IMG/VR virus record: IMGVR_UViG_3300034069_002177
Coordinates: 96,001 to 160,000 of that record
Reading direction: 5' to 3' (one strand)
Origin: a virus
Taxonomy: Duplodnaviria > Caudoviricetes
DNA: 64,000 nt
The translations under genes and the position numbers were made by a program. The notes under the pieces were generated by a model. It was not told the origin of the DNA. It was given only the letters and a program-made list of their open reading frames with translations, and did no database searches. This document shows positions 17,298 to 26,325 of this stretch, piece after piece; position 1 is the stretch's first letter, and every line of letters begins with the position of its first letter.

Positions 17298-17409
17298 GCC
17301 TCATCTTAGCAAGAAAACAATGGTCATGCTAGGCGGTAGTGTAGAGTGATACAAAACTGTGACCGTTACGAAAACAGACCTTATATGTAACGGTACGAGG
17401 GTGAAATTG

Positions 17410-18276: not shown

Positions 18277-21210
18277 ATGATGGTATCCACACACGAGAAG
18301 CACGCTCTCCGAGTTGCGCGTAAGGCAGAAGACCTGTCTTACGCCGCGCGTTCGGTTTGGGGTAAGACCCAGCGTGGTAAAGATACGACCTTCTGGATGC
18401 CTCTTTACCGGCACTTGGCTGATACTGCACTCGTATCTGCGCGCCTTTACGATGAATACCTGCCGGATGCCGCCAAGCGAGATATTGCTCTTGCTCTGAA
18501 CAGCGAAGATGATGCGCGGACACTAGCTATTTTCCTTGCTGGAATTCACGACCTCGGTAAGTCATCGCCTGTTTTCCTTGCATCAGAAGATGATTACGTC
18601 AATGAACTCAATGATGCATTCATGGGCAAAAATGGTCTTCACGTGCCACGAGGTCTTGATAGATCTCTAATTCGACATGAAGTAATCTCAGCTATTCTCA
18701 TCAAGCGCTTCCTTCTCGAAGAAGGTGTCTCTGAGGCTGTAGCTGATTCTTGCGCAATCGTAGTCGGTAGTCATCACGGCAACCCCCTCTCTCACGAGCT
18801 TCTTGCGTCTTGTATCGGTCGAGAAGACATCATCGGAACTTCTGACCCAGCCTGGCTCGCCGTTCAGCGCGAAATCTTTGACTATGCCGCTGTCATCTCC
18901 GGGGCTAACAAGAGCTTCATTAATTGGCGAGACATGGAGATGTCACGTTCAGCAGAAACCATTCTTATGGGTTTCGTTGTAGCTGCTGACTGGGGTGCCT
19001 CTCAGGGTTTTGGCTGCAATATGTCTTTGAAATCCAAGACCCTCGACATCGACGTAAAGAAAGACACCAGCCGAGCGGTGGTTGCGCTCAACGCACTGCC
19101 TATTCCATCCAAGTGGACACCCTCTGTACCGCCCAACGCAGGGAGTGAATTCTTCCATACGAGATTTGGCTTCCCACCACGACCTGTACAGAAGGCTGCG
19201 CTTGATGCTGTTCGTCCAATGACAGACAGTGGGCTAATAATCATCGAAGCCCCAATGGGTGAAGGCAAAACGGAAGCCGCGCTCGCTGTTGCTGAGGTAA
19301 TGGCTCAGCAAACTGGTGCGTCAGGAGTATTTGTTGCACTACCCACCATTGCTACCTCAGACGCCATATTCAGCCGCGCCCGAAGCTGGGTTAGCAACCT
19401 TCCCGGAAGCCGCAGTGGCATGTCGATGTATCTTTCGCATTCCCGTTCCGGTCTCAACGGTAACTTCGCTGAACTACTAGATGCGGCTCGTGAAGAAGGC
19501 GTCGATGGTGGACACGTCAATAGGTGGCTGTCACAGGGAACCAAGCTGGGTCCGCTATCGAACTTCGTAGTCGGGACTATCGACCAAGTGCTTGTTTCGG
19601 CATTGGCATCAAGGCATGTCACGTTGCGACATCTAGCGCTCGCCAACAAGGTTGTAATTCTCGATGAGGTGCATGCATATGATGCGTATATGAACGTATT
19701 CCTGGCACGAGCGTTGCAATGGTTGGGTTATTACGGCGTTCCCGTCGTGCTTCTTTCGGCTACTTTGCCGACCGATATCCGCAAGGATCTGGTGGTGGCA
19801 TATAACGACGGCTTGAATTCGCGTCGGACGATGAGTGCACCTGTCAAGGAACTTCCTCTTACTTTGGACATCACTAAGATTGCAAAGTCCAAGCAGTCAC
19901 GTAATGACATTGGCGGTATTGACCTGAAGCCGTTGACAACTATTCGGTACCCTTTGATTTCCGTTCTGGACAAGAAAGGTGTGCATGTTCATCACACCGA
20001 AGGTGCATCGAGCAAGAATCCGCTCGCTCTGAATGTGCTTCCTGGCGGTGGTAACGACGAGACGCTCGCGAAGCGTCTTTCTGACCGACTCATCCACGGC
20101 GGGTGTATCGGAATCTTCCGTAATACGGTCGCTCGTTCTCAGCAGACCTATGACGCCATGAAGGCATACTTTGCGGAGCAAGAAATTCCTGTCGAGGTTC
20201 TTCTACTCCACTCGCGATTCATCGGGCTTGATCGCGCCGTCAAAGAACAGCGGCTCAACAACTATCTCGGCAAGGAATTTGCCAAACGACCTAAGCGGCT
20301 CATTGTAGTCGGAACACAGGTGATGGAACAGTCGCTTGATATCGATTTCGATGAAAGCATTTCGGACATTGCTCCTATTGACTCGCTGTTGCAGCGCGCG
20401 GGACGAACCCATCGCCACAACATCCCCAATCGTCCGCGCGTATTCACGGAACCAAGACTTTACATCGCTGGAGTCTCTAACTGGGATGAAGAAGAAGGTG
20501 GGGTGCCTGGTGTCAACCATGCCGCAGAAGCGATTTATCCACTCAAAACACTGTACCGAGCCGTTCACGCCCTGCGCCCTTACGCCCTAGATGACGAGAA
20601 GCGACTACAACTCCCTCGTGATATTTCTGCCTTGGTACGTCGTGGTTATGGCGACCGTGTTCGTCCGCCTGAAAGCTGGAAGGACGAATGGAAGGTAGCC
20701 GAGAAAGAATGGCGCGATCTCATCAAGGATAAACGGGATAAGGCTGACAGTAACTATCTCCTTCCCGCGCCTGAGACCGACATCCTTGACTGGCAAAGCC
20801 ATATCAGCAAGGGTGTTGGAGATAGCGAATCCAAAGCACTCGCGTCTGTCCGAGACATCGATGATGAGGAAGAGATCATCTTGCTCAAGTCGAATGGAAA
20901 GGGTCAGATCCAAACTCTCGATGGAGAGTTTGCTGGTGCTGGTCTCGCAGTTGATTTCGAGAGTAAACCTAATCACGAAACTGCACTTGCTATTGCGGCA
21001 AGCATGTTGCGTCTCCGGGCAAAAGAATTTGCTGCCCTTGACGCTGAGTCGGTTCTATTCGACACCGATCTGATTGGTGAATGGAAAGCGATTCCGATTC
21101 TACGTCACAAGAAAATTCTGGTGCTGCGAGAGAACATGGTTATCAACGGCAAGGGTTTTGCTGTGCAGTACAGCCATGACCGGGGTTTGGAAATGAAGGT
21201 GGTTAAGTGA
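18277..21210 (+). CDS. cas3: Cas3 HD nuclease-helicase (type I-E)
   Basis: WGK...PL..HL.DT, IHDLGK, HHG, EAPMGEGKTEAA, LDEVHAY, LLSATL, HSRF, TQVMEQSLDIDFD and QRAGRTHRH. Confidence 0.97.
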   Translation: MMVSTHEKHALRVARKAEDLSYAARSVWGKTQRGKDTTFWMPLYRHLADTALVSARLYDEYLPDAAKRDIALALNSEDDARTLAIFLAGIHDLGKSSPVFLASEDDYVNELNDAFMGKNGLHVPRGLDRSLIRHEVISAILIKRFLLEEGVSEAVADSCAIVVGSHHGNPLSHELLASCIGREDIIGTSDPAWLAVQREIFDYAAVISGANKSFINWRDMEMSRSAETILMGFVVAADWGASQGFGCNMSLKSKTLDIDVKKDTSRAVVALNALPIPSKWTPSVPPNAGSEFFHTRFGFPPRPVQKAALDAVRPMTDSGLIIIEAPMGEGKTEAALAVAEVMAQQTGASGVFVALPTIATSDAIFSRARSWVSNLPGSRSGMSMYLSHSRSGLNGNFAELLDAAREEGVDGGHVNRWLSQGTKLGPLSNFVVGTIDQVLVSALASRHVTLRHLALANKVVILDEVHAYDAYMNVFLARALQWLGYYGVPVVLLSATLPTDIRKDLVVAYNDGLNSRRTMSAPVKELPLTLDITKIAKSKQSRNDIGGIDLKPLTTIRYPLISVLDKKGVHVHHTEGASSKNPLALNVLPGGGNDETLAKRLSDRLIHGGCIGIFRNTVARSQQTYDAMKAYFAEQEIPVEVLLLHSRFIGLDRAVKEQRLNNYLGKEFAKRPKRLIVVGTQVMEQSLDIDFDESISDIAPIDSLLQRAGRTHRHNIPNRPRVFTEPRLYIAGVSNWDEEEGGVPGVNHAAEAIYPLKTLYRAVHALRPYALDDEKRLQLPRDISALVRRGYGDRVRPPESWKDEWKVAEKEWRDLIKDKRDKADSNYLLPAPETDILDWQSHISKGVGDSESKALASVRDIDDEEEIILLKSNGKGQIQTLDGEFAGAGLAVDFESKPNHETALAIAASMLRLRAKEFAALDAESVLFDTDLIGEWKAIPILRHKKILVLRENMVINGKGFAVQYSHDRGLEMKVVK

Positions 21211-23261
21211 CATCGTTCAACCTTGTTGATGAGCCTTGGATTCCAGTCAATCTGATTAGCGGTGAGGGTGTTGACGTTTCACTAAGAGATCTCTTTGCCC
21301 GCTCTCGTGATATTCGCTCTATCGAGTGTGACAACCCGATGCAGACCGCAGCGGTGGTGAGACTGGTACTTGCTGTAATGTACCGGGCTCTTACGCCTTT
21401 GTTTCTGGCGCAGAAGAATCACGCTAAAAACGCCGATGTCACTCTCTGGAAAATGCTGTGGGACGACGAGACGGGCACACTTGCCAACACAATCGACAGC
21501 TATCTCGAAACATGGAAGAATCGCTTCGATCTATTCGATGCCAAGCGCCCTTTCTACCAAATCGCTGACTTGGAATACAGCAGCGCCGATGAAAGCAATC
21601 GAGGCGAAATCAAGCGCAGCCTTGGAAAGATGATGCCTGACGGTGACATCATCAGCGTTTTCAAGAACAGCGATTTTGCTGCTAAGGTGAGTTATGCAGA
21701 AGCGGCGCGTATTCTCATTGGCTACCATTCGTGGTCAACTCTCGCTCCACTCAGTCCTGTGGTGGGTATTTACCCGGATGACGAGCTAGCTATTTCACGA
21801 CTGTATCCCAAAGGTCATCGCGGTTGGTGTTCTTCAATCGGGATCACCCTCATGGTAGGTCGCAATTTCTATGAGACGGCGATGCTCAACTTCGTCCCCA
21901 GCCAACTCAATTTCAAAGATGTACCTTTCTGGGAAGAGGCTAAGGCTCGAAAAGTGCCGATCCTCTATGAAATGCCAGATGGTCTCGCCAAGCCCATCCT
22001 CAAATCTCGCAATGCCAAACCTGTTGGTCAGGTACAGCTTTTCGTTTGGTTCGCTAAGAGCGTTCGACTAATTCCCGAAAACGGTAAAGTCGTTGCGGCT
22101 ATTTCATCCGAGCACGATTCACTGAGTTCCCGAAGCTCCAATGTACACATGGCTCGACACCATGAAACTCAAACTGCTTGGCGCGAAACGGAGAAAGGTG
22201 AGATGGCGGCGTATCACTTTGTCAGCGACTCGGTTTGGCAGAACATTCCCGCAGTGCTTCCCAAGACTCGTGATGGATTCCTTGCCCCACTCAACGTTAC
22301 ATGGTCGGCAAAGGTCGTCAACTTACTCGGTATTCGGCTACCCGCACGAATTCGCATTATCGGAGCGAGTACCGATGATCGTGCGCAAACATTTCGAGGC
22401 GTTATTGACAAGAGCGTTACCATCTCGTCTTTGTCCAAACTGGATAATCCCGTTGTCACAGCCCGTATTGCAGATACTGCCGAAACGTTGACGAAAATGG
22501 TTAGGACTTACTACTACGGCTTTGCACGCGATGTCCTCTCTACCAAGTACGGGGAGGTGTCCAGCATCCTTTTAGATGCCCTTATGTCGCCAGCTAACGT
22601 TGTCTTGGACAAGTCCTTCGTCTCTTTGTTCCGGCTCGCTACAGACCCGAATGAGCCGAACGTTGATACTGTTATCGATGGCTTGGTCGAACACTTGATC
22701 GAGCTATCTCAGGAAGTAGCCAATGATTCAAACGGAACTGACTTGCTGGGAAAATGGCACCACATCAACGGAGAAAACAAGCTTCTTTCGATTGCTGCCT
22801 CACGCGCAAGATTGTTACGGGGAATTCAGCCCGAACGCAAGAAATCGTTTGGAAAACTGACCGAAGATGCTGGGTTTGTAAGGTGGGCGATCAATAAGAA
22901 CCTCGCCAGCAAAAAGCTGAGCCCCGAAGAGTCCGACTTGGATGAGTTCGTGTTGGGGTTCTGGTCTGGGCGGAAAAATCTACCCAGCGGTGCTCCCGTC
23001 CATATCGTCGAGAAGACTCCTTATGACTCTTTTTCGGTATTGCGCAAGAGTGATGGCGCAGCCTTCGATGAGAGAGTTTCTGACCTTTTCGATGCCAAAG
23101 ATGATGCAACCATCAAGGAGTCCTTACGTCGTCTGGCGGGTGTGGCTAATTCGCAGGGTTATCCGATGGATTTCGGAACTCTCGCGGCTATTGGGAAGTC
23201 GATTCACAATCCCGAACTACGTCTAGAAATCGCGCAAGATATAGCAGACCGCCGTAAGTGA
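21207..23261 (+). CDS. cas8e: Cas8e/Cse1 with an apparently fused C-terminal Cas11/Cse2
   Basis: SFNLVDEPWIPV and GW...G.....GRNFYETAMLNF mark Cse1. The 684-aa ORF ends in FDERVSDLFDAKD...LRRL......G.PMDFGTLA...RLEIAQD, which is Cse2-like. No separate cse2 ORF. Confidence 0.85.
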   Translation: MTSFNLVDEPWIPVNLISGEGVDVSLRDLFARSRDIRSIECDNPMQTAAVVRLVLAVMYRALTPLFLAQKNHAKNADVTLWKMLWDDETGTLANTIDSYLETWKNRFDLFDAKRPFYQIADLEYSSADESNRGEIKRSLGKMMPDGDIISVFKNSDFAAKVSYAEAARILIGYHSWSTLAPLSPVVGIYPDDELAISRLYPKGHRGWCSSIGITLMVGRNFYETAMLNFVPSQLNFKDVPFWEEAKARKVPILYEMPDGLAKPILKSRNAKPVGQVQLFVWFAKSVRLIPENGKVVAAISSEHDSLSSRSSNVHMARHHETQTAWRETEKGEMAAYHFVSDSVWQNIPAVLPKTRDGFLAPLNVTWSAKVVNLLGIRLPARIRIIGASTDDRAQTFRGVIDKSVTISSLSKLDNPVVTARIADTAETLTKMVRTYYYGFARDVLSTKYGEVSSILLDALMSPANVVLDKSFVSLFRLATDPNEPNVDTVIDGLVEHLIELSQEVANDSNGTDLLGKWHHINGENKLLSIAASRARLLRGIQPERKKSFGKLTEDAGFVRWAINKNLASKKLSPEESDLDEFVLGFWSGRKNLPSGAPVHIVEKTPYDSFSVLRKSDGAAFDERVSDLFDAKDDATIKESLRRLAGVANSQGYPMDFGTLAAIGKSIHNPELRLEIAQDIADRRK

Positions 23262-23262
23262 T

Positions 23263-23291
23263 TTGACACGACGACTACACTCAGATACCCT
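23263..23291 (+). promoter_or_regulatory. Internal promoter upstream of cas7
   Basis: TTGACA-17 nt-TACCCT in the cas8e-cas7 gap, followed by an AGGAGA RBS. Confidence 0.65.
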
Positions 23292-23310
23292 TCCGTCAGG
23301 AGAACCATCA

Positions 23311-24381
23311 ATGACAACTTTCATCAACATCCACGCCATTCAAAGCCTTCCTCCATCGTCGCTTAACCGTGATGACAGCGGAGTTCCTAAGAAGGCACTG
23401 TTCGGCGGTACAGAACGCGTTCGGGTTTCTTCTCAGTCATGGAAGTTCGCTATTCGAAAGTTCTTTTCTGATAACTACGACTCCAGCTATATTGGGTGTC
23501 GGACGACTCAGCTTCCTGTGGAGTTCGAAAAGGCTCTACGGTCAATCCGACCCGAAGCCGATGATGCACTGGTGAAAAAGCTGACGAAGACAGTTTTGGG
23601 AGTAGCCGAGAAAACCGAAGAAGACGGGGCGGGATTCGAGCCTGGTTCGGTTGCGGGTTCTAAGATGATTGTCTTCTATAGCCCCGCGCAGTTAGAGGCG
23701 CTCGTTACCATCGCCATCGAGGTGGTTGACGGAAAACGAAAAGGTGTCACTGTTTCTGAGATCAAAGAAGCATTGGTTGGCAAGAACACTGTCGATATCG
23801 CCCTGTTTGGGAGAATGATGACGGCTCAGGCGGAACTAAGTGTTGATGCTGCGGCAAATGTTGCTCACGTCATCGGAGTTGATAAATATGAGTCGCAACG
23901 TGACTCCTTTGTGGGTTTAGACGACAACCTCGGTAAGGCAAAAATCCTGGGCTCCATTGACTTCGTATCTTCGGTCGTCTACCGATACGCATGTATCGAT
24001 GCTGATTCACTCACCAAGAACCTTGATGGTGACAAGACGTTCTCGGCGGAGGCGGCTGGTGCATTTATCAATGCATTCATTCGGTCCATGCCATCGGGTA
24101 AGCAGTCTAGCTTCGCGGCTCATACCCTCCCCAGTTTCGTTCTCGTAACACTTTCAGATAATCAGCCACTCTCGCTTGCTAGTGCCTTCACTCGGGTAAT
24201 TAGCGGCGACGACATTGAAAACGACGCTATTGACGCCCTGGTGGAGAATGCGATGATGATCTCCGATAACTATGGGGAACCGATTGCTGCATTCACGTTG
24301 CATGATGGAACGCATGATATTCCTTTTGCGAAGAAGGTTTCGCTGCCCGACCTAGTTGACTCTGTGAAGAAAGCTTACTAA
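23311..24381 (+). CDS. cas7: Cas7/Cse4
   Basis: FINIHAIQSLPPSSLNRDDSG.PK...FGG..RVRVSSQSWK, DIALFGRM and YRYA. Confidence 0.96.
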   Translation: MTTFINIHAIQSLPPSSLNRDDSGVPKKALFGGTERVRVSSQSWKFAIRKFFSDNYDSSYIGCRTTQLPVEFEKALRSIRPEADDALVKKLTKTVLGVAEKTEEDGAGFEPGSVAGSKMIVFYSPAQLEALVTIAIEVVDGKRKGVTVSEIKEALVGKNTVDIALFGRMMTAQAELSVDAAANVAHVIGVDKYESQRDSFVGLDDNLGKAKILGSIDFVSSVVYRYACIDADSLTKNLDGDKTFSAEAAGAFINAFIRSMPSGKQSSFAAHTLPSFVLVTLSDNQPLSLASAFTRVISGDDIENDAIDALVENAMMISDNYGEPIAAFTLHDGTHDIPFAKKVSLPDLVDSVKKAY

Positions 24382-24384
24382 GTC

Positions 24385-25128
24385 ATGTCATCCGTCGTTC
24401 TTGTCCTTTCTGGTGTACTCCAATCATGGGGTACTACCACTATCGGTCATGCCCGAGCAACAAACAGCTACCCAACCAAGAGCGCCATCGTTGGTCTTGT
24501 TGCAAATGCGCTCGGTAGAGAACGCACTGATACCATTTCGGATTTGGCGAAACTTTCGTTCGGAGTTCGTATCGATATGGCGGGCGTAGTGCAACGTGAT
24601 TATCACACGGTCAGCATTATCACTCAGCCGACTAAAGGTGACAGAGTGAATCGCATCACTGAACGCTATTACTTAGCCGATGCTGTTTTCGTGGTCGTGC
24701 TTAGTGGTACTGATAATGAGCTAATCAAGCAAATCGGAGAAGCATTACAGCGCCCCGCACGACCTTTGTTCCTGGGACGCAAGTCATGCCCTCCTATCAG
24801 ACCAACTTTTCATAGCTACTCAGATCTTGGCGTTCAAGAAACACTGGCTGCTGTTGCTTGGCAGGCTGATATTGCTACGCAGGAATCATTCATCGGTTCT
24901 CATCTCGAATTAGATGTTTACCGAGACCCTACCGATGACATCGAGGGTTTTGACTCTGATGTCATCAATGACCAGCCGAAGAGTTTTGATCCTCATGCTC
25001 GTAGGTATGCATCACGAGGCGTTTACCGCGATGTCGTAAAGATCGAGTTTCCTATTCAGCAGTCAAGAACGACTCCTATTTCTGGTTTCTTTGCGCTGGC
25101 ACAAAAGGTTGCGGAGGCAGCATCATGA
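24385..25128 (+). CDS. cas5: Cas5e
   Basis: L.L.G.LQSWG, PTKSAIVGLVANALGRER, ERYYLADA and LFLGRKSCPP. Confidence 0.96.
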   Translation: MSSVVLVLSGVLQSWGTTTIGHARATNSYPTKSAIVGLVANALGRERTDTISDLAKLSFGVRIDMAGVVQRDYHTVSIITQPTKGDRVNRITERYYLADAVFVVVLSGTDNELIKQIGEALQRPARPLFLGRKSCPPIRPTFHSYSDLGVQETLAAVAWQADIATQESFIGSHLELDVYRDPTDDIEGFDSDVINDQPKSFDPHARRYASRGVYRDVVKIEFPIQQSRTTPISGFFALAQKVAEAAS

Positions 25129-25760
25129 CGTATCTCACCGTCGTTCCTCTGAATGCTTACAGGGCGTCCACTAAGAAGATGCTGTCTTCTCGTCAAGTTG
25201 CTCACGCAACAGTGATGCAGTCATTCGCGCCCAATCAAAATCTCAATGACGCCGATTCAAGAGTTCTTTGGTCGCTTGATGTTTCGGGTCGAGACGTGCA
25301 ACTGACCATTCTGAGTCCAGAGCGGGCTTCTGTAGAGCACATTGTGGAGACCTGCGGATGGACAGCAGCGGGAGATTCTAGCTTCCAGCAAGTTGAATAC
25401 ACCCCGTTGGTTTCGAGTGTTGCAACAGGAAGTCAGTATTCATTTTCTGTCACAGTCAATCCTGTTATTTCGGTCACAGGAAGTTCCAAACGCATAGCGG
25501 TTTCCGAGAAAGACGTAGCTGCATGGGTTGCTTCTAAATTCGGGCGGGAAGGTATGAGAATTATCACCTCAGAAGTAATCTCGTATCGTATTGAATCCTT
25601 CAAACGAGGAAACGGCAAGGTCACTCTGGCGTTGGCTACCGTCACTGGGACATTCCGGGTTGAGGATGCATCAGCCACGCAAAAAGCTCTCGTTGCTGGG
25701 ATTGGTCGTGCCAAAGGATATGGCTGTGGTCTCATCTCACTCAACGAGCAATTAGTCTGA
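25125..25760 (+). CDS. cas6e: Cas6e/Cse3 crRNA endonuclease
   Basis: YLT..PLN, H..VM..F, RVLW.LD and the C-terminal Gly loop GIGRAKGYGCGL. Confidence 0.96.
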   Translation: MTYLTVVPLNAYRASTKKMLSSRQVAHATVMQSFAPNQNLNDADSRVLWSLDVSGRDVQLTILSPERASVEHIVETCGWTAAGDSSFQQVEYTPLVSSVATGSQYSFSVTVNPVISVTGSSKRIAVSEKDVAAWVASKFGREGMRIITSEVISYRIESFKRGNGKVTLALATVTGTFRVEDASATQKALVAGIGRAKGYGCGLISLNEQLV

Positions 25761-25765
25761 TTGGG

Positions 25766-25839
25766 GTGCTCCCAGTGATGGGATGTTCCTCCGTGATACC
25801 GACGTGACAAGAATTCCCCGGCACGCCGGGGTTGCACTC
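25766..25839 (+). CRISPR. Mini-array: divergent I-E repeat (25766-25790), 20-nt spacer (25791-25810), I-E repeat (25811-25839)
   Basis: R1 GTGCTCCCAGTGATGGGATGTTCCT (TCCCA/TGGGA stem); spacer CCGTGATACCGACGTGACAA; R2 GAATTCCCCGGCACGCCGGGGTTGCACTC (29 nt, CCCCGG/CCGGGG stem). Starts 5 nt after the cas6e stop. Confidence 0.8.
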
Positions 25840-25857
25840 CAATCAGATTCACTCAGT

Positions 25858-25886
25858 TTGACTTTCGGGCATAATTGAACTACCGT
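25858..25886 (+). promoter_or_regulatory. Promoter for 25921
   Basis: TTGACT-17 nt-TACCGT. Confidence 0.6.
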
Positions 25887-25920: not shown

Positions 25921-26325
25921 ATGGCTGTCACTCTAGATTCAATGCCGAACGAGGTCAATGTCAAGGACGCACCTCCCGCTCCTAATCTCGTCAAGGTCGC
26001 AACTCTCCGAGCGGTCACCACTCGCCGTCGTCTGGATCGTTTCTGGCAGATGATTCGCGATGAGGCTCCCACCAGCTATCCCGTTGGCACCTACAGCATC
26101 CCTGGTGAAGAGGATCTGAAGCTCGTGGTGGTCGATGTCATGAAGCCCGCATCAAGCGCAGAGCTTACCGATGACGACACAGCAGTCTTCCCGAAATACC
26201 GTTTCGGTGCAAAGGTCGTCTCTGCCGATTCGATTGCTACCGATCTCGGTGAAATCGGAGTTGCCACTCCTTACGACTACGTAGCTCCCAAGCCCAAGAA
26301 CACTCCCGGTGACGGATTCGTTTGA
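25921..26325 (+). CDS. Hypothetical protein, paralogue of 9483-9905
   Basis: GAAAGGA RBS; RFWQMIRDE...PVGTY...FPKYRFGAKVVSADS. Confidence 0.8.
   Translation: MAVTLDSMPNEVNVKDAPPAPNLVKVATLRAVTTRRRLDRFWQMIRDEAPTSYPVGTYSIPGEEDLKLVVVDVMKPASSAELTDDDTAVFPKYRFGAKVVSADSIATDLGEIGVATPYDYVAPKPKNTPGDGFV

Follow-up and report, generated by a model that had tools for sequence, protein, structure and literature searches.

Degenerate mini-CRISPRs that consist of two repeats and one spacer are found beside the cas genes of type I and type V-A loci, where they encode the CreA/CreR guides and related CRISPR-like RNAs (crlRNAs). As described in the consulted parts of two reports (10.1101/2023.03.10.532045, 10.1101/2024.10.29.618823), the first repeat of such a locus keeps the bases of the 5' handle, the second one keeps the hairpin, and the guide is fixed by selection instead of being acquired. 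The same can be observed in a 64,000-nucleotide stretch of viral DNA (Duplodnaviria; Caudoviricetes), here called the window, which corresponds to bases 96,001-160,000 of the 202,737-base IMG/VR virus record IMGVR_UViG_3300034069_002177. In this element, a type I-E cas operon ends in cas6e, and a two-repeat, one-spacer unit starts at the cas6e stop codon. However, the guides of CreR and crlRNAs pair partially with a cas or toxin promoter of their own locus, according to the same parts of these reports, whereas the guide of this unit pairs over its full short length with bacterial tRNA-Glu genes. The unit is also enclosed by a closing helix, a feature of which the consulted parts of 10.1101/2023.03.10.532045 and 10.1101/2024.10.29.618823 contain no description. 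On balance, and with some reserve, we favor the reading that the unit is a dedicated, hard-wired single-guide CRISPR RNA (crRNA) gene, which would serve a phage-borne, adaptation-less, short-guide type I-E Cascade aimed at host tRNA-Glu genes.

Three further groups of systems resemble the locus in part. Huge phages carry CRISPR-Cas systems without Cas1/Cas2, with compact arrays and with spacers against host genes for transcription or translation (Al-Shayeb et al. 2020, PMC7162821). The present locus shares with them the large virus-type record, the effectors without an adaptation module, the very small arrays and a target in the host translation apparatus of which the element brings its own copy. 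The host targets reported for huge phages are protein genes (sigma-70, glycyl-tRNA synthetase; PMC7162821), whereas here they are tRNA genes, read in one fixed register in which the T-loop supplies the protospacer-adjacent motif (PAM). Furthermore, the crRNA predicted here is 12 nt shorter than that of a canonical type I-E system and one guide is set apart in a clamped unit behind cas6e. The homing guides of CRISPR-associated transposons (CASTs; types I-F3 and V-K; PMC11656645, PMC9723613) are likewise hard-wired and encoded by a mobile element; their repeats are atypical, their spacer is short in V-K, and their target is a conserved site on the chromosome, located at a tRNA gene or close to one. 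CASTs have Tn7-type transposition genes and no Cas3, in contrast to this locus, where a Cas3 is present and the target lies inside the tRNA gene body; no Tn7-type transposition genes were found among the neighbors of the locus, the whole record not having been searched for them. Finally, in engineered type I-E Cascades of E. coli and S. thermophilus (PMC5159557, PMC6859484) the crRNA length changes in 6-nt steps, with Cas7 and Cse2 subunits being lost or gained. Those are laboratory constructs, whereas here a whole lineage appears to have the short format as its natural state. A literature search returned neither a description of phage guides that target the body of tRNA genes with the T-loop as PAM nor one of a helix-closed mini-array.

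The unit lies on the + strand. Its closing helix of 13-14 bp is built from a 5' arm at 25757-25769 (from 25756 in the inverted repeat), which contains the cas6e stop codon (TGA, 25758-25760), and a 3' arm at 25834-25846 (to 25847 in the inverted repeat), which stands in place of the normal 3' handle of the second repeat (R2). In the inverted-repeat search, the arms 25756-25769 and 25834-25847 measure 14 nt each, are 93% complementary and lie 64 nt apart, a G-U being the single non-Watson-Crick pair. An earlier sequence-only reading of the window had described such an outer stem, beginning at the cas6e stop and surrounding both repeat hairpins and the spacer, and both this search and RNAfold bear it out. 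In the minimum free energy (MFE) structure as well as in the centroid, both hairpins and the spacer lie inside the outer helix and a three-way junction is formed. The RNAfold check that had been proposed gave an MFE of -45 to -48 kcal/mol with z about -4 to -5: -47.7 kcal/mol for 25750-25860 (z = -4.81; 0 of 200 shuffles equally stable) and -45.2 kcal/mol for 25756-25847 (z = -4.14).

The first repeat (R1, about 25766-25790) forms a hairpin at 25770-25783 with a 5-bp stem and a GTGA loop of the GNRA type, i.e. a shortened I-E-type repeat stem, followed by an ATGTTCC handle. The predicted 8-nt 5' handle of the mature crRNA, ATGTTCCT, occupies 25783-25790, with GGGATGTTCC invariant in seven lineages, and Cas6e is expected, in analogy to other I-E systems, to cleave between 25782 and 25783. 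The guide follows at 25791-25811 (about 20-21 nt); its positions 1-17 (25791-25807) are conserved and antisense to nucleotides 35-52 of tRNA-Glu. R2 (25812-25831) comprises a 4-nt 5' flank and a hairpin of canonical I-E size (6 bp, 4-nt loop, 25816-25831), at which the crRNA is predicted to end. Both repeats were compared with the I-E repeat of E. coli. They read as the sequence-only reading had them, with a shortened stem in R1, a full hairpin in R2 and an altered 3' flank of R2 that forms the 3' arm. Each repeat thereby keeps the part that belongs to the mature crRNA (the handle in R1, the hairpin in R2), a division of labor also seen in CreR-type mini-CRISPRs, as far as the consulted part of 10.1101/2023.03.10.532045 describes them.

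By its genes, the system is of type I-E, as the Cse1, Cas7, Cas5, Cas6e and Cas3 profiles were all matched. The repeats also have the form of this type, their G+C-rich hairpin being followed by a handle of 8 nt that conforms to AT..CC. A canonical type I-E crRNA measures 61 nt and contains a spacer of 32-33 nt; the distance between the R1 cleavage site and the R2 stem is 45 nt in E. coli. The window departs from these lengths. The predicted R1 cleavage site is separated from the R2 stem by 33 nt (the 8-nt handle plus 25 nt). The predicted crRNA measures about 49 nt, a length that drops to 45 nt if the R2 stem is shorter. It would thus be 12 nt, or two Cas7 steps, below the canonical 61 nt, which would give a Cascade with four Cas7 subunits.

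The unit is not confined to the window. Relatives of its Cas6e are few among the 5.8 billion proteins searched, and their genes are ordered as cas3, cse1, cas7, cas5 and cas6e, followed by genes for proteins of 134, about 120 and about 143 aa and by an ArdC-like gene. In the loci L004-L008 and L010/L011 (Cas6e 51-55% identical) the unit is present in the gap between cas6e and the 134-aa gene. Metagenome contigs were then pattern-scanned with the handle and the guide start, which yielded four further lineages (L191, L207, L161 and L185), in each of which the unit is preceded by a Cas6e homologue (37-53% identical) and followed by the 134-aa gene. Elements of this kind are present in metagenomes from plants, food and leaf litter. 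In total, the unit was found in the window and six other lineages with Cas6e proteins that are 37-55% identical, and its position between cas6e and the 134-aa gene is constant. Relative to the first base of the stop codon, the start of the 5' arm ranges from 5 nt upstream to 8 nt downstream in six lineages; L185 does not allow a reliable placement of the stop.

When folded as single sequences, all seven lineages form the closing helix, R1, an open guide and R2 (z from -3.2 to -4.9). Alignment of all seven with MAFFT and RNAalifold misaligned the arms of the three most divergent ones, and the single-sequence folds and a three-lineage alignment (window, L004 and L010) were relied on instead. The covariation was measured on this alignment. 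In the closing helix, 97% of the cells are paired and both sides have changed in 5 of the 12 aligned pairs. The R1 hairpin is paired in 100% of its cells and also forms in every single-lineage fold, while the R2 hairpin displays one compensatory pair and one G-U. For the structure as a whole, 98.6% of the cells are paired, compared with 30-52% when the partners are slid by 1-3 columns. As the structure recurs in six other lineages with compensatory changes, it is above chance, and the homologues have kept the outer stem rather than lost it.

The arms themselves are free to change. In L207, L161 and L185 the unit is closed by unrelated sequences; since the arm sequences differ and the unit is nevertheless always closed, the conserved feature is the closure itself and not its sequence. 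These three lineages also possess a second helix (L207:663-751, - strand; L161:538-630, - strand; L185:1485-1584, + strand), in which a GAGGAA box located behind R2 is the pairing partner of the handle (GTTCCTC). This inner helix, which is missing in the four other lineages, sequesters the handle inside the closing structure of the precursor.

The guide is conserved more strictly. Its positions 1-17 are identical in the seven lineages except for position 8 (A or G), position 10 (in L191) and position 15 (in L185), while positions 19-21 vary. Between the handle and the R2 stem, L161 has 24 nt and the six other lineages have 25 nt. Seven divergent lineages thus keep a two-repeat, one-spacer unit, the core of its guide and a closing helix of changing sequence, which argues for a selected guide RNA gene and not for the eroded end of a longer array. 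The latter had been named among the ways in which the sequence-only reading could fail, and the related lineages speak against it.

In bacterial tRNA-Glu genes, the guide is complementary to the sense strand, running backwards from nucleotide 52 to about nucleotide 34. Bacterial genomes were searched with a pattern composed of the reverse complement of guide positions 1-20 and a following GTT, in which positions 6, 12 and 18 were left as N and at most 2 mismatches were allowed; the reversed pattern served as control. In the Pseudomonadota, 61 of 151 genomes matched at about 130 sites and the control gave 0. Among the Actinomycetota, matches were found in 16 of 81 genomes (14 of 79 without the unpublished genomes G006 and G053), against 1 for the control. 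With these genomes, the locus shares a spacer match to the bacterial chromosome with the CRISPR systems of huge phages. ARAGORN called a tRNA-Glu at 7 of the 8 match loci that were checked and no tRNA at the remaining one (L141). In Nocardioides sp. B-3 (G001) and in G411, guide positions 1-19 all pair except 6, (12) and 18, and position 20 is also mismatched. Genomes of Sphingomonas and Acidiphilium match with 3 mismatches; no match to the guide was found in Microvirga, a Rhizobiaceae genome and Rhodanobacter.

The places of the mismatches are those expected from a crRNA. In type I Cascades, every sixth base of the crRNA (6, 12, 18) is flipped out and remains unpaired. The probability that three mismatches among the first 19 positions would all coincide with multiples of six is about 1 in 969. 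When the fully specified guide was searched in 401 Actinomycetota genomes with up to 3 mismatches, matches remained at the level of the control, and they emerge once positions 6, 12 and 18 are freed. The protospacer always ends at tRNA nucleotide 52, so that the invariant T-loop bases G53-T54-T55 fill the PAM position (5'-AAC on the non-target strand); AAC is therefore a putative PAM. The A-to-G variant at guide position 8 (L004, L185) corresponds to a natural C44 variant of tRNA-Glu that is present in many genomes. The three tRNA-Glu genes of the element itself have a variable loop of 5 nt, compared with 4 nt in the matched bacterial genes, and they mismatch the guide at no fewer than 11 of 19 positions in register.

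These observations also bear on the view that no guide is involved at all. The unit could instead serve RNA stability, termination or processing where the cas operon ends, or it could be the remnant of a decaying array, its similarity to tRNA being a historical trace. A very stable structure at the end of the operon would fit this, as would the one lineage that does without the unit. However, conservation is strongest in the single-stranded spacer, which keeps 16-17 of 17 positions across lineages whose flanks no longer align; moreover, the guide variant tracks the natural tRNA-Glu variant, the mismatches to the target fall on every sixth position, and no T-run is present behind the closing helix. 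We regard this explanation as very improbable.

The sequence-only reading had taken the unit for a regulatory guide of the CreA/CreR type. Its first half, a guide that is selected and not decayed, is upheld by the seven lineages, but a target in cis could be found neither in the 202,737 bases of the element nor in nearby promoters. No match with up to 5 mismatches was found in the whole record, and when up to 6 mismatches and seed-weighted scoring were allowed, only chance-level matches appeared. The promoters of cas3, of the upstream gene and of the downstream operon were without a match as well (window, L004 and L009). Two PAM-flanked seed matches of 9-10 nt were set aside as post hoc. One of them consists of ATG plus the first 10 guide bases at about 72,750 of the record (L135:2735-2775), in a promoter-like stretch before a tRNA-Met gene; it is possibly a weak self-site or due to chance. 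The other one is located at 83,567 of the record, inside a terminator hairpin.

A guide that directs Cascade to a promoter within the element, be it that of the cas operon, a toxin gene or a neighboring gene, would agree with a degenerate mini-CRISPR beside cas genes in which R1 keeps the handle and R2 the hairpin, and the partial match before the tRNA-Met gene could be its target. The two-repeat anatomy of CreR is indeed present, whereas the PAM-flanked promoter target in cis was not found. The 10-nt seed match is a single one, recognized after the fact, and the match to tRNA-Glu is far stronger. We consequently see hardly any likelihood in such a regulator.

Searches beyond the element had also been suggested. 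BLAST of the locus against plasmids gave no match, R1 was not found in viral contigs, and Cas6e had one distant match there, which was not used. The exact 17-mer of the guide occurs in three viral contigs, in unrelated positions and never in a tRNA context; the replicon and the viral contigs yielded no target, and the bacterial tRNA-Glu genes did. This result also speaks to warfare between elements, in which the tRNA-Glu genes of rival co-infecting phages or plasmids, and not those of the host chromosome, would be targeted. Most known virus-borne mini-arrays and many spacers of huge phages do target other viruses, and tRNA genes are common in large phages. Yet the bacterial tRNA-Glu genes match abundantly in contrast to the viral contigs, and a guide that hits the host-like tRNA-Glu genes of rivals would hit the host, too. 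Such warfare is improbable, if slightly less so than the two alternatives above.

That a short guide is the rule for this system, and not a peculiarity of one unit, follows from a second CRISPR-like array. It is located outside the window at 76,240-76,530 of the record (L135:6240-6530), between the genes for tRNA-Val and tRNA-Asp in a tRNA gene cluster, and consists of 5-6 degenerate I-E-type repeats with a strict period of 48 nt and mutually similar spacers of about 20 nt. Its handles (ATGAACC, ATGATCC and ATGTTCC) are of the same type as that of the unit, and this type is repeated five times at the 48-nt period. It is the strict period together with the handle type that points to short crRNAs as the rule. 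No closing helix was found around this array (z = 0.06). Its spacer s0 matches tRNA-Ala(CGC) perfectly at all paired positions in two genomes, in the same register as the tRNA-Glu guide. For the other spacers, the nearest matches in the tRNAs of the element itself share that register, with 2-5 mismatches.

From these data, the following course of events can be proposed. The unit would be transcribed with cas6e or just behind it, and the RNA would fold into the three-way junction of closing helix, short R1 hairpin, single-stranded guide and full R2 hairpin. Cas6e would then cut both repeats at their 3' base, releasing a crRNA of about 49 nt that is composed of the 8-nt handle, the guide of about 20-21 nt with a short flank and the R2 hairpin. 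The resulting short Cascade would bind the tRNA-Glu genes of the host. Binding would most likely trigger the degradation of host DNA from these multi-copy sites and would at least block their transcription. Degradation is favored as outcome because an apparently intact Cas3 has been kept in the operon. The HD, helicase and C-terminal domains of Cas3 were all found by profile search, and the HD motif 'IHDLGK' was read in its sequence. When the choice is narrowed to Cas3 attack or pure repression, the former appears to be somewhat the more probable of the two, since Cas3 is retained even though every crRNA unit is short and since the guide pairs over the full short spacer.

A guide for repression only is accordingly the alternative that deserves most attention. 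A short Cascade on the host tRNA-Glu genes and their operons would block transcription without Cas3, either as a shut-off that resembles CRISPR interference with transcription (CRISPRi) or as a re-tuning of the tRNA pool. All evidence for the tRNA-Glu target applies equally to this explanation. In engineered E. coli Cascades with shortened spacers, fewer Cas7 subunits are present and spacers longer than 20 nt still interfere, which places a guide of about 20 nt at the threshold for interference (PMC5159557). Furthermore, crlRNAs need no cleavage to repress at 15-20 matching bases, and cleavage would be lethal if the element is a resident prophage, as the provirus label of the record would suggest. 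On the other side, Cas3 and its intact HD motif have been retained in those lineages for which the corresponding segment of the operon was read. All crRNA units of the element are short, so Cas3 would be useless if short R-loops could not license it. In addition, the complementarity of the guide spans the short spacer in full, in contrast to the partial pairing of CreR. Repression as the only function therefore seems unlikely, although it is a good deal less remote than the other alternatives.

As for the closing helix, it would be removed by processing and would therefore have to act on the precursor. Most likely it would be a scaffold for folding and processing, which keeps two weak and unequal repeats in register inside a long mRNA. 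It would also remove or suppress a spurious handle after R2, and it may protect the cut ends. A coupling to the translation of cas6e is possible as well: in six of the seven lineages the 5' arm starts inside the footprint of the ribosome that terminates on cas6e, and translation may thus open the helix. When the 3' arm was shuffled in silico in a 250-nt context, the outcome differed between the three lineages. The folding of R1 collapsed in the window, the accessibility of the guide dropped in L004 and there was no effect in L010.

Several points weigh against the favored reading of a single-guide crRNA gene aimed at host tRNA-Glu. The transcription, the processing and the 49-nt product are predictions from sequence, a search for the stretch among RNA runs having returned none that contains it, and breaking the helix in silico destroys R1 folding only in the window's own sequence. 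A guide of about 20 nt is the lower limit for interference in E. coli (PMC5159557), and binding without cleavage is therefore quite possible. The putative AAC PAM differs from the AAG that is canonical in E. coli. The exact 17-mer, when searched in genome contigs, gave at least 120 matches in unrelated genes of high-G+C genomes, which approximately corresponds to chance expectation; a tRNA was not among the matched genes. As tRNA-Glu is conserved enough to be matched in two phyla, the match does not name a host. For the guides s1-s4 of the second array, ten genomes were tried and no convincing match to a tRNA emerged. One relative with the same gene order (L009; Cas6e 51% identical) has only a 70-nt spacer after cas6e (L009:7992-8063) without the unit, which was either lost or never gained. 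Finally, the nature of the element itself is involved. IMG/VR labels the record a provirus, and for a resident prophage, cutting the tRNA genes of its host would be suicidal unless the operon is tightly timed. Capsid, terminase and tail families were not found among the 29 proteins, encoded by large open reading frames, that were scanned against PHROGs.

The record, which is rated 96% complete by CheckV and whose source contig reportedly measures 654 kb, has further features. The cas genes all lie on the + strand and consist of cas3 (18277-21210), cse1/cas8e (21207-23261; 684 aa), cas7 of the CT1975 family (23263-24381) and cas5 (24385-25128), each with Pfam and NCBIfam matches, and of cas6e (25125-25760; 211 aa), which matches PF08798 (E 9.5e-39) and TIGR01907 (E 8e-16). 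No cas1, cas2 or separate cse2 was found in the operon or its flanks in the window and in L004-L009. For the last ~235 residues of Cse1, Cse2 was the only match in Pfam and in NCBIfam, a weak one (E 0.03-0.04). Possibly, the cse1 gene has absorbed cse2, resulting in a Cas8e-Cas11 fusion that would fit a shortened Cascade.

Upstream of the cas operon, a stretch of about 45 nt in the divergent promoter region (window 17330-17380; L004:240-290) is nearly identical between lineages that have otherwise diverged by about 50%. It contains GTGATAC and GTGAC motifs that are loosely guide-like, but their spacing is different and no crRNA match results. Downstream of the unit, a putative promoter of the next operon was read directly on the + strand (25858-25886; TTGACT, 17 nt, TACCGT), its -35 box being conserved in the related loci that were read; a promoter scan tool proposed an overlapping alternative at 25848-25875. 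The gene behind it (25921-26325, + strand) encodes the 134-aa protein, which has no Pfam or PHROG match. Both the TTGACT box, about 10-25 nt past the unit, and the 134-aa gene are kept in all lineages, including the one without the unit.

The element is also rich in genes for replication and tRNA. It encodes its own DNA polymerase, helicases, topoisomerase II, SbcCD, a sliding clamp and a clamp loader, and further an NAD-dependent ligase, a CCA-adding enzyme and NAMPT. Its 202,737 bases hold 64 tRNA genes, 43 of which are found within 12 kb (L135:238-11841).

Taken together, a wider picture can be drawn, which we hold tentatively and with more doubt than the reading of the unit itself. A lineage of huge phages would possess a natural miniature Cascade, with four Cas7 steps, a Cas8e-Cas11 fusion and crRNAs of about 49 nt, and a set of guides hard-wired against bacterial tRNA genes. 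These guides would all read nucleotides ~34-52, so that the T-loop GTT acts as a built-in PAM. The tRNA genes of the host would be destroyed or silenced and replaced by the 64 divergent tRNAs of the phage, while the tRNA-Glu guide would be expressed as a separate helix-closed unit that is coupled to the translation of cas6e.

If this is true, selection can fix a CRISPR guide that is directed against a universal gene of the cell. A protospacer that ends at tRNA position 52 would let the invariant T-loop supply the PAM, and the guide would work across many hosts without spacer acquisition. The natural short-format I-E Cascade and the self-folding single-guide cassette may serve as models for compact type I tools. 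For the huge phages themselves, their large tRNA sets and their adaptation-less CRISPR systems would then be linked as one strategy, that of replacing the tRNA genes of the host.

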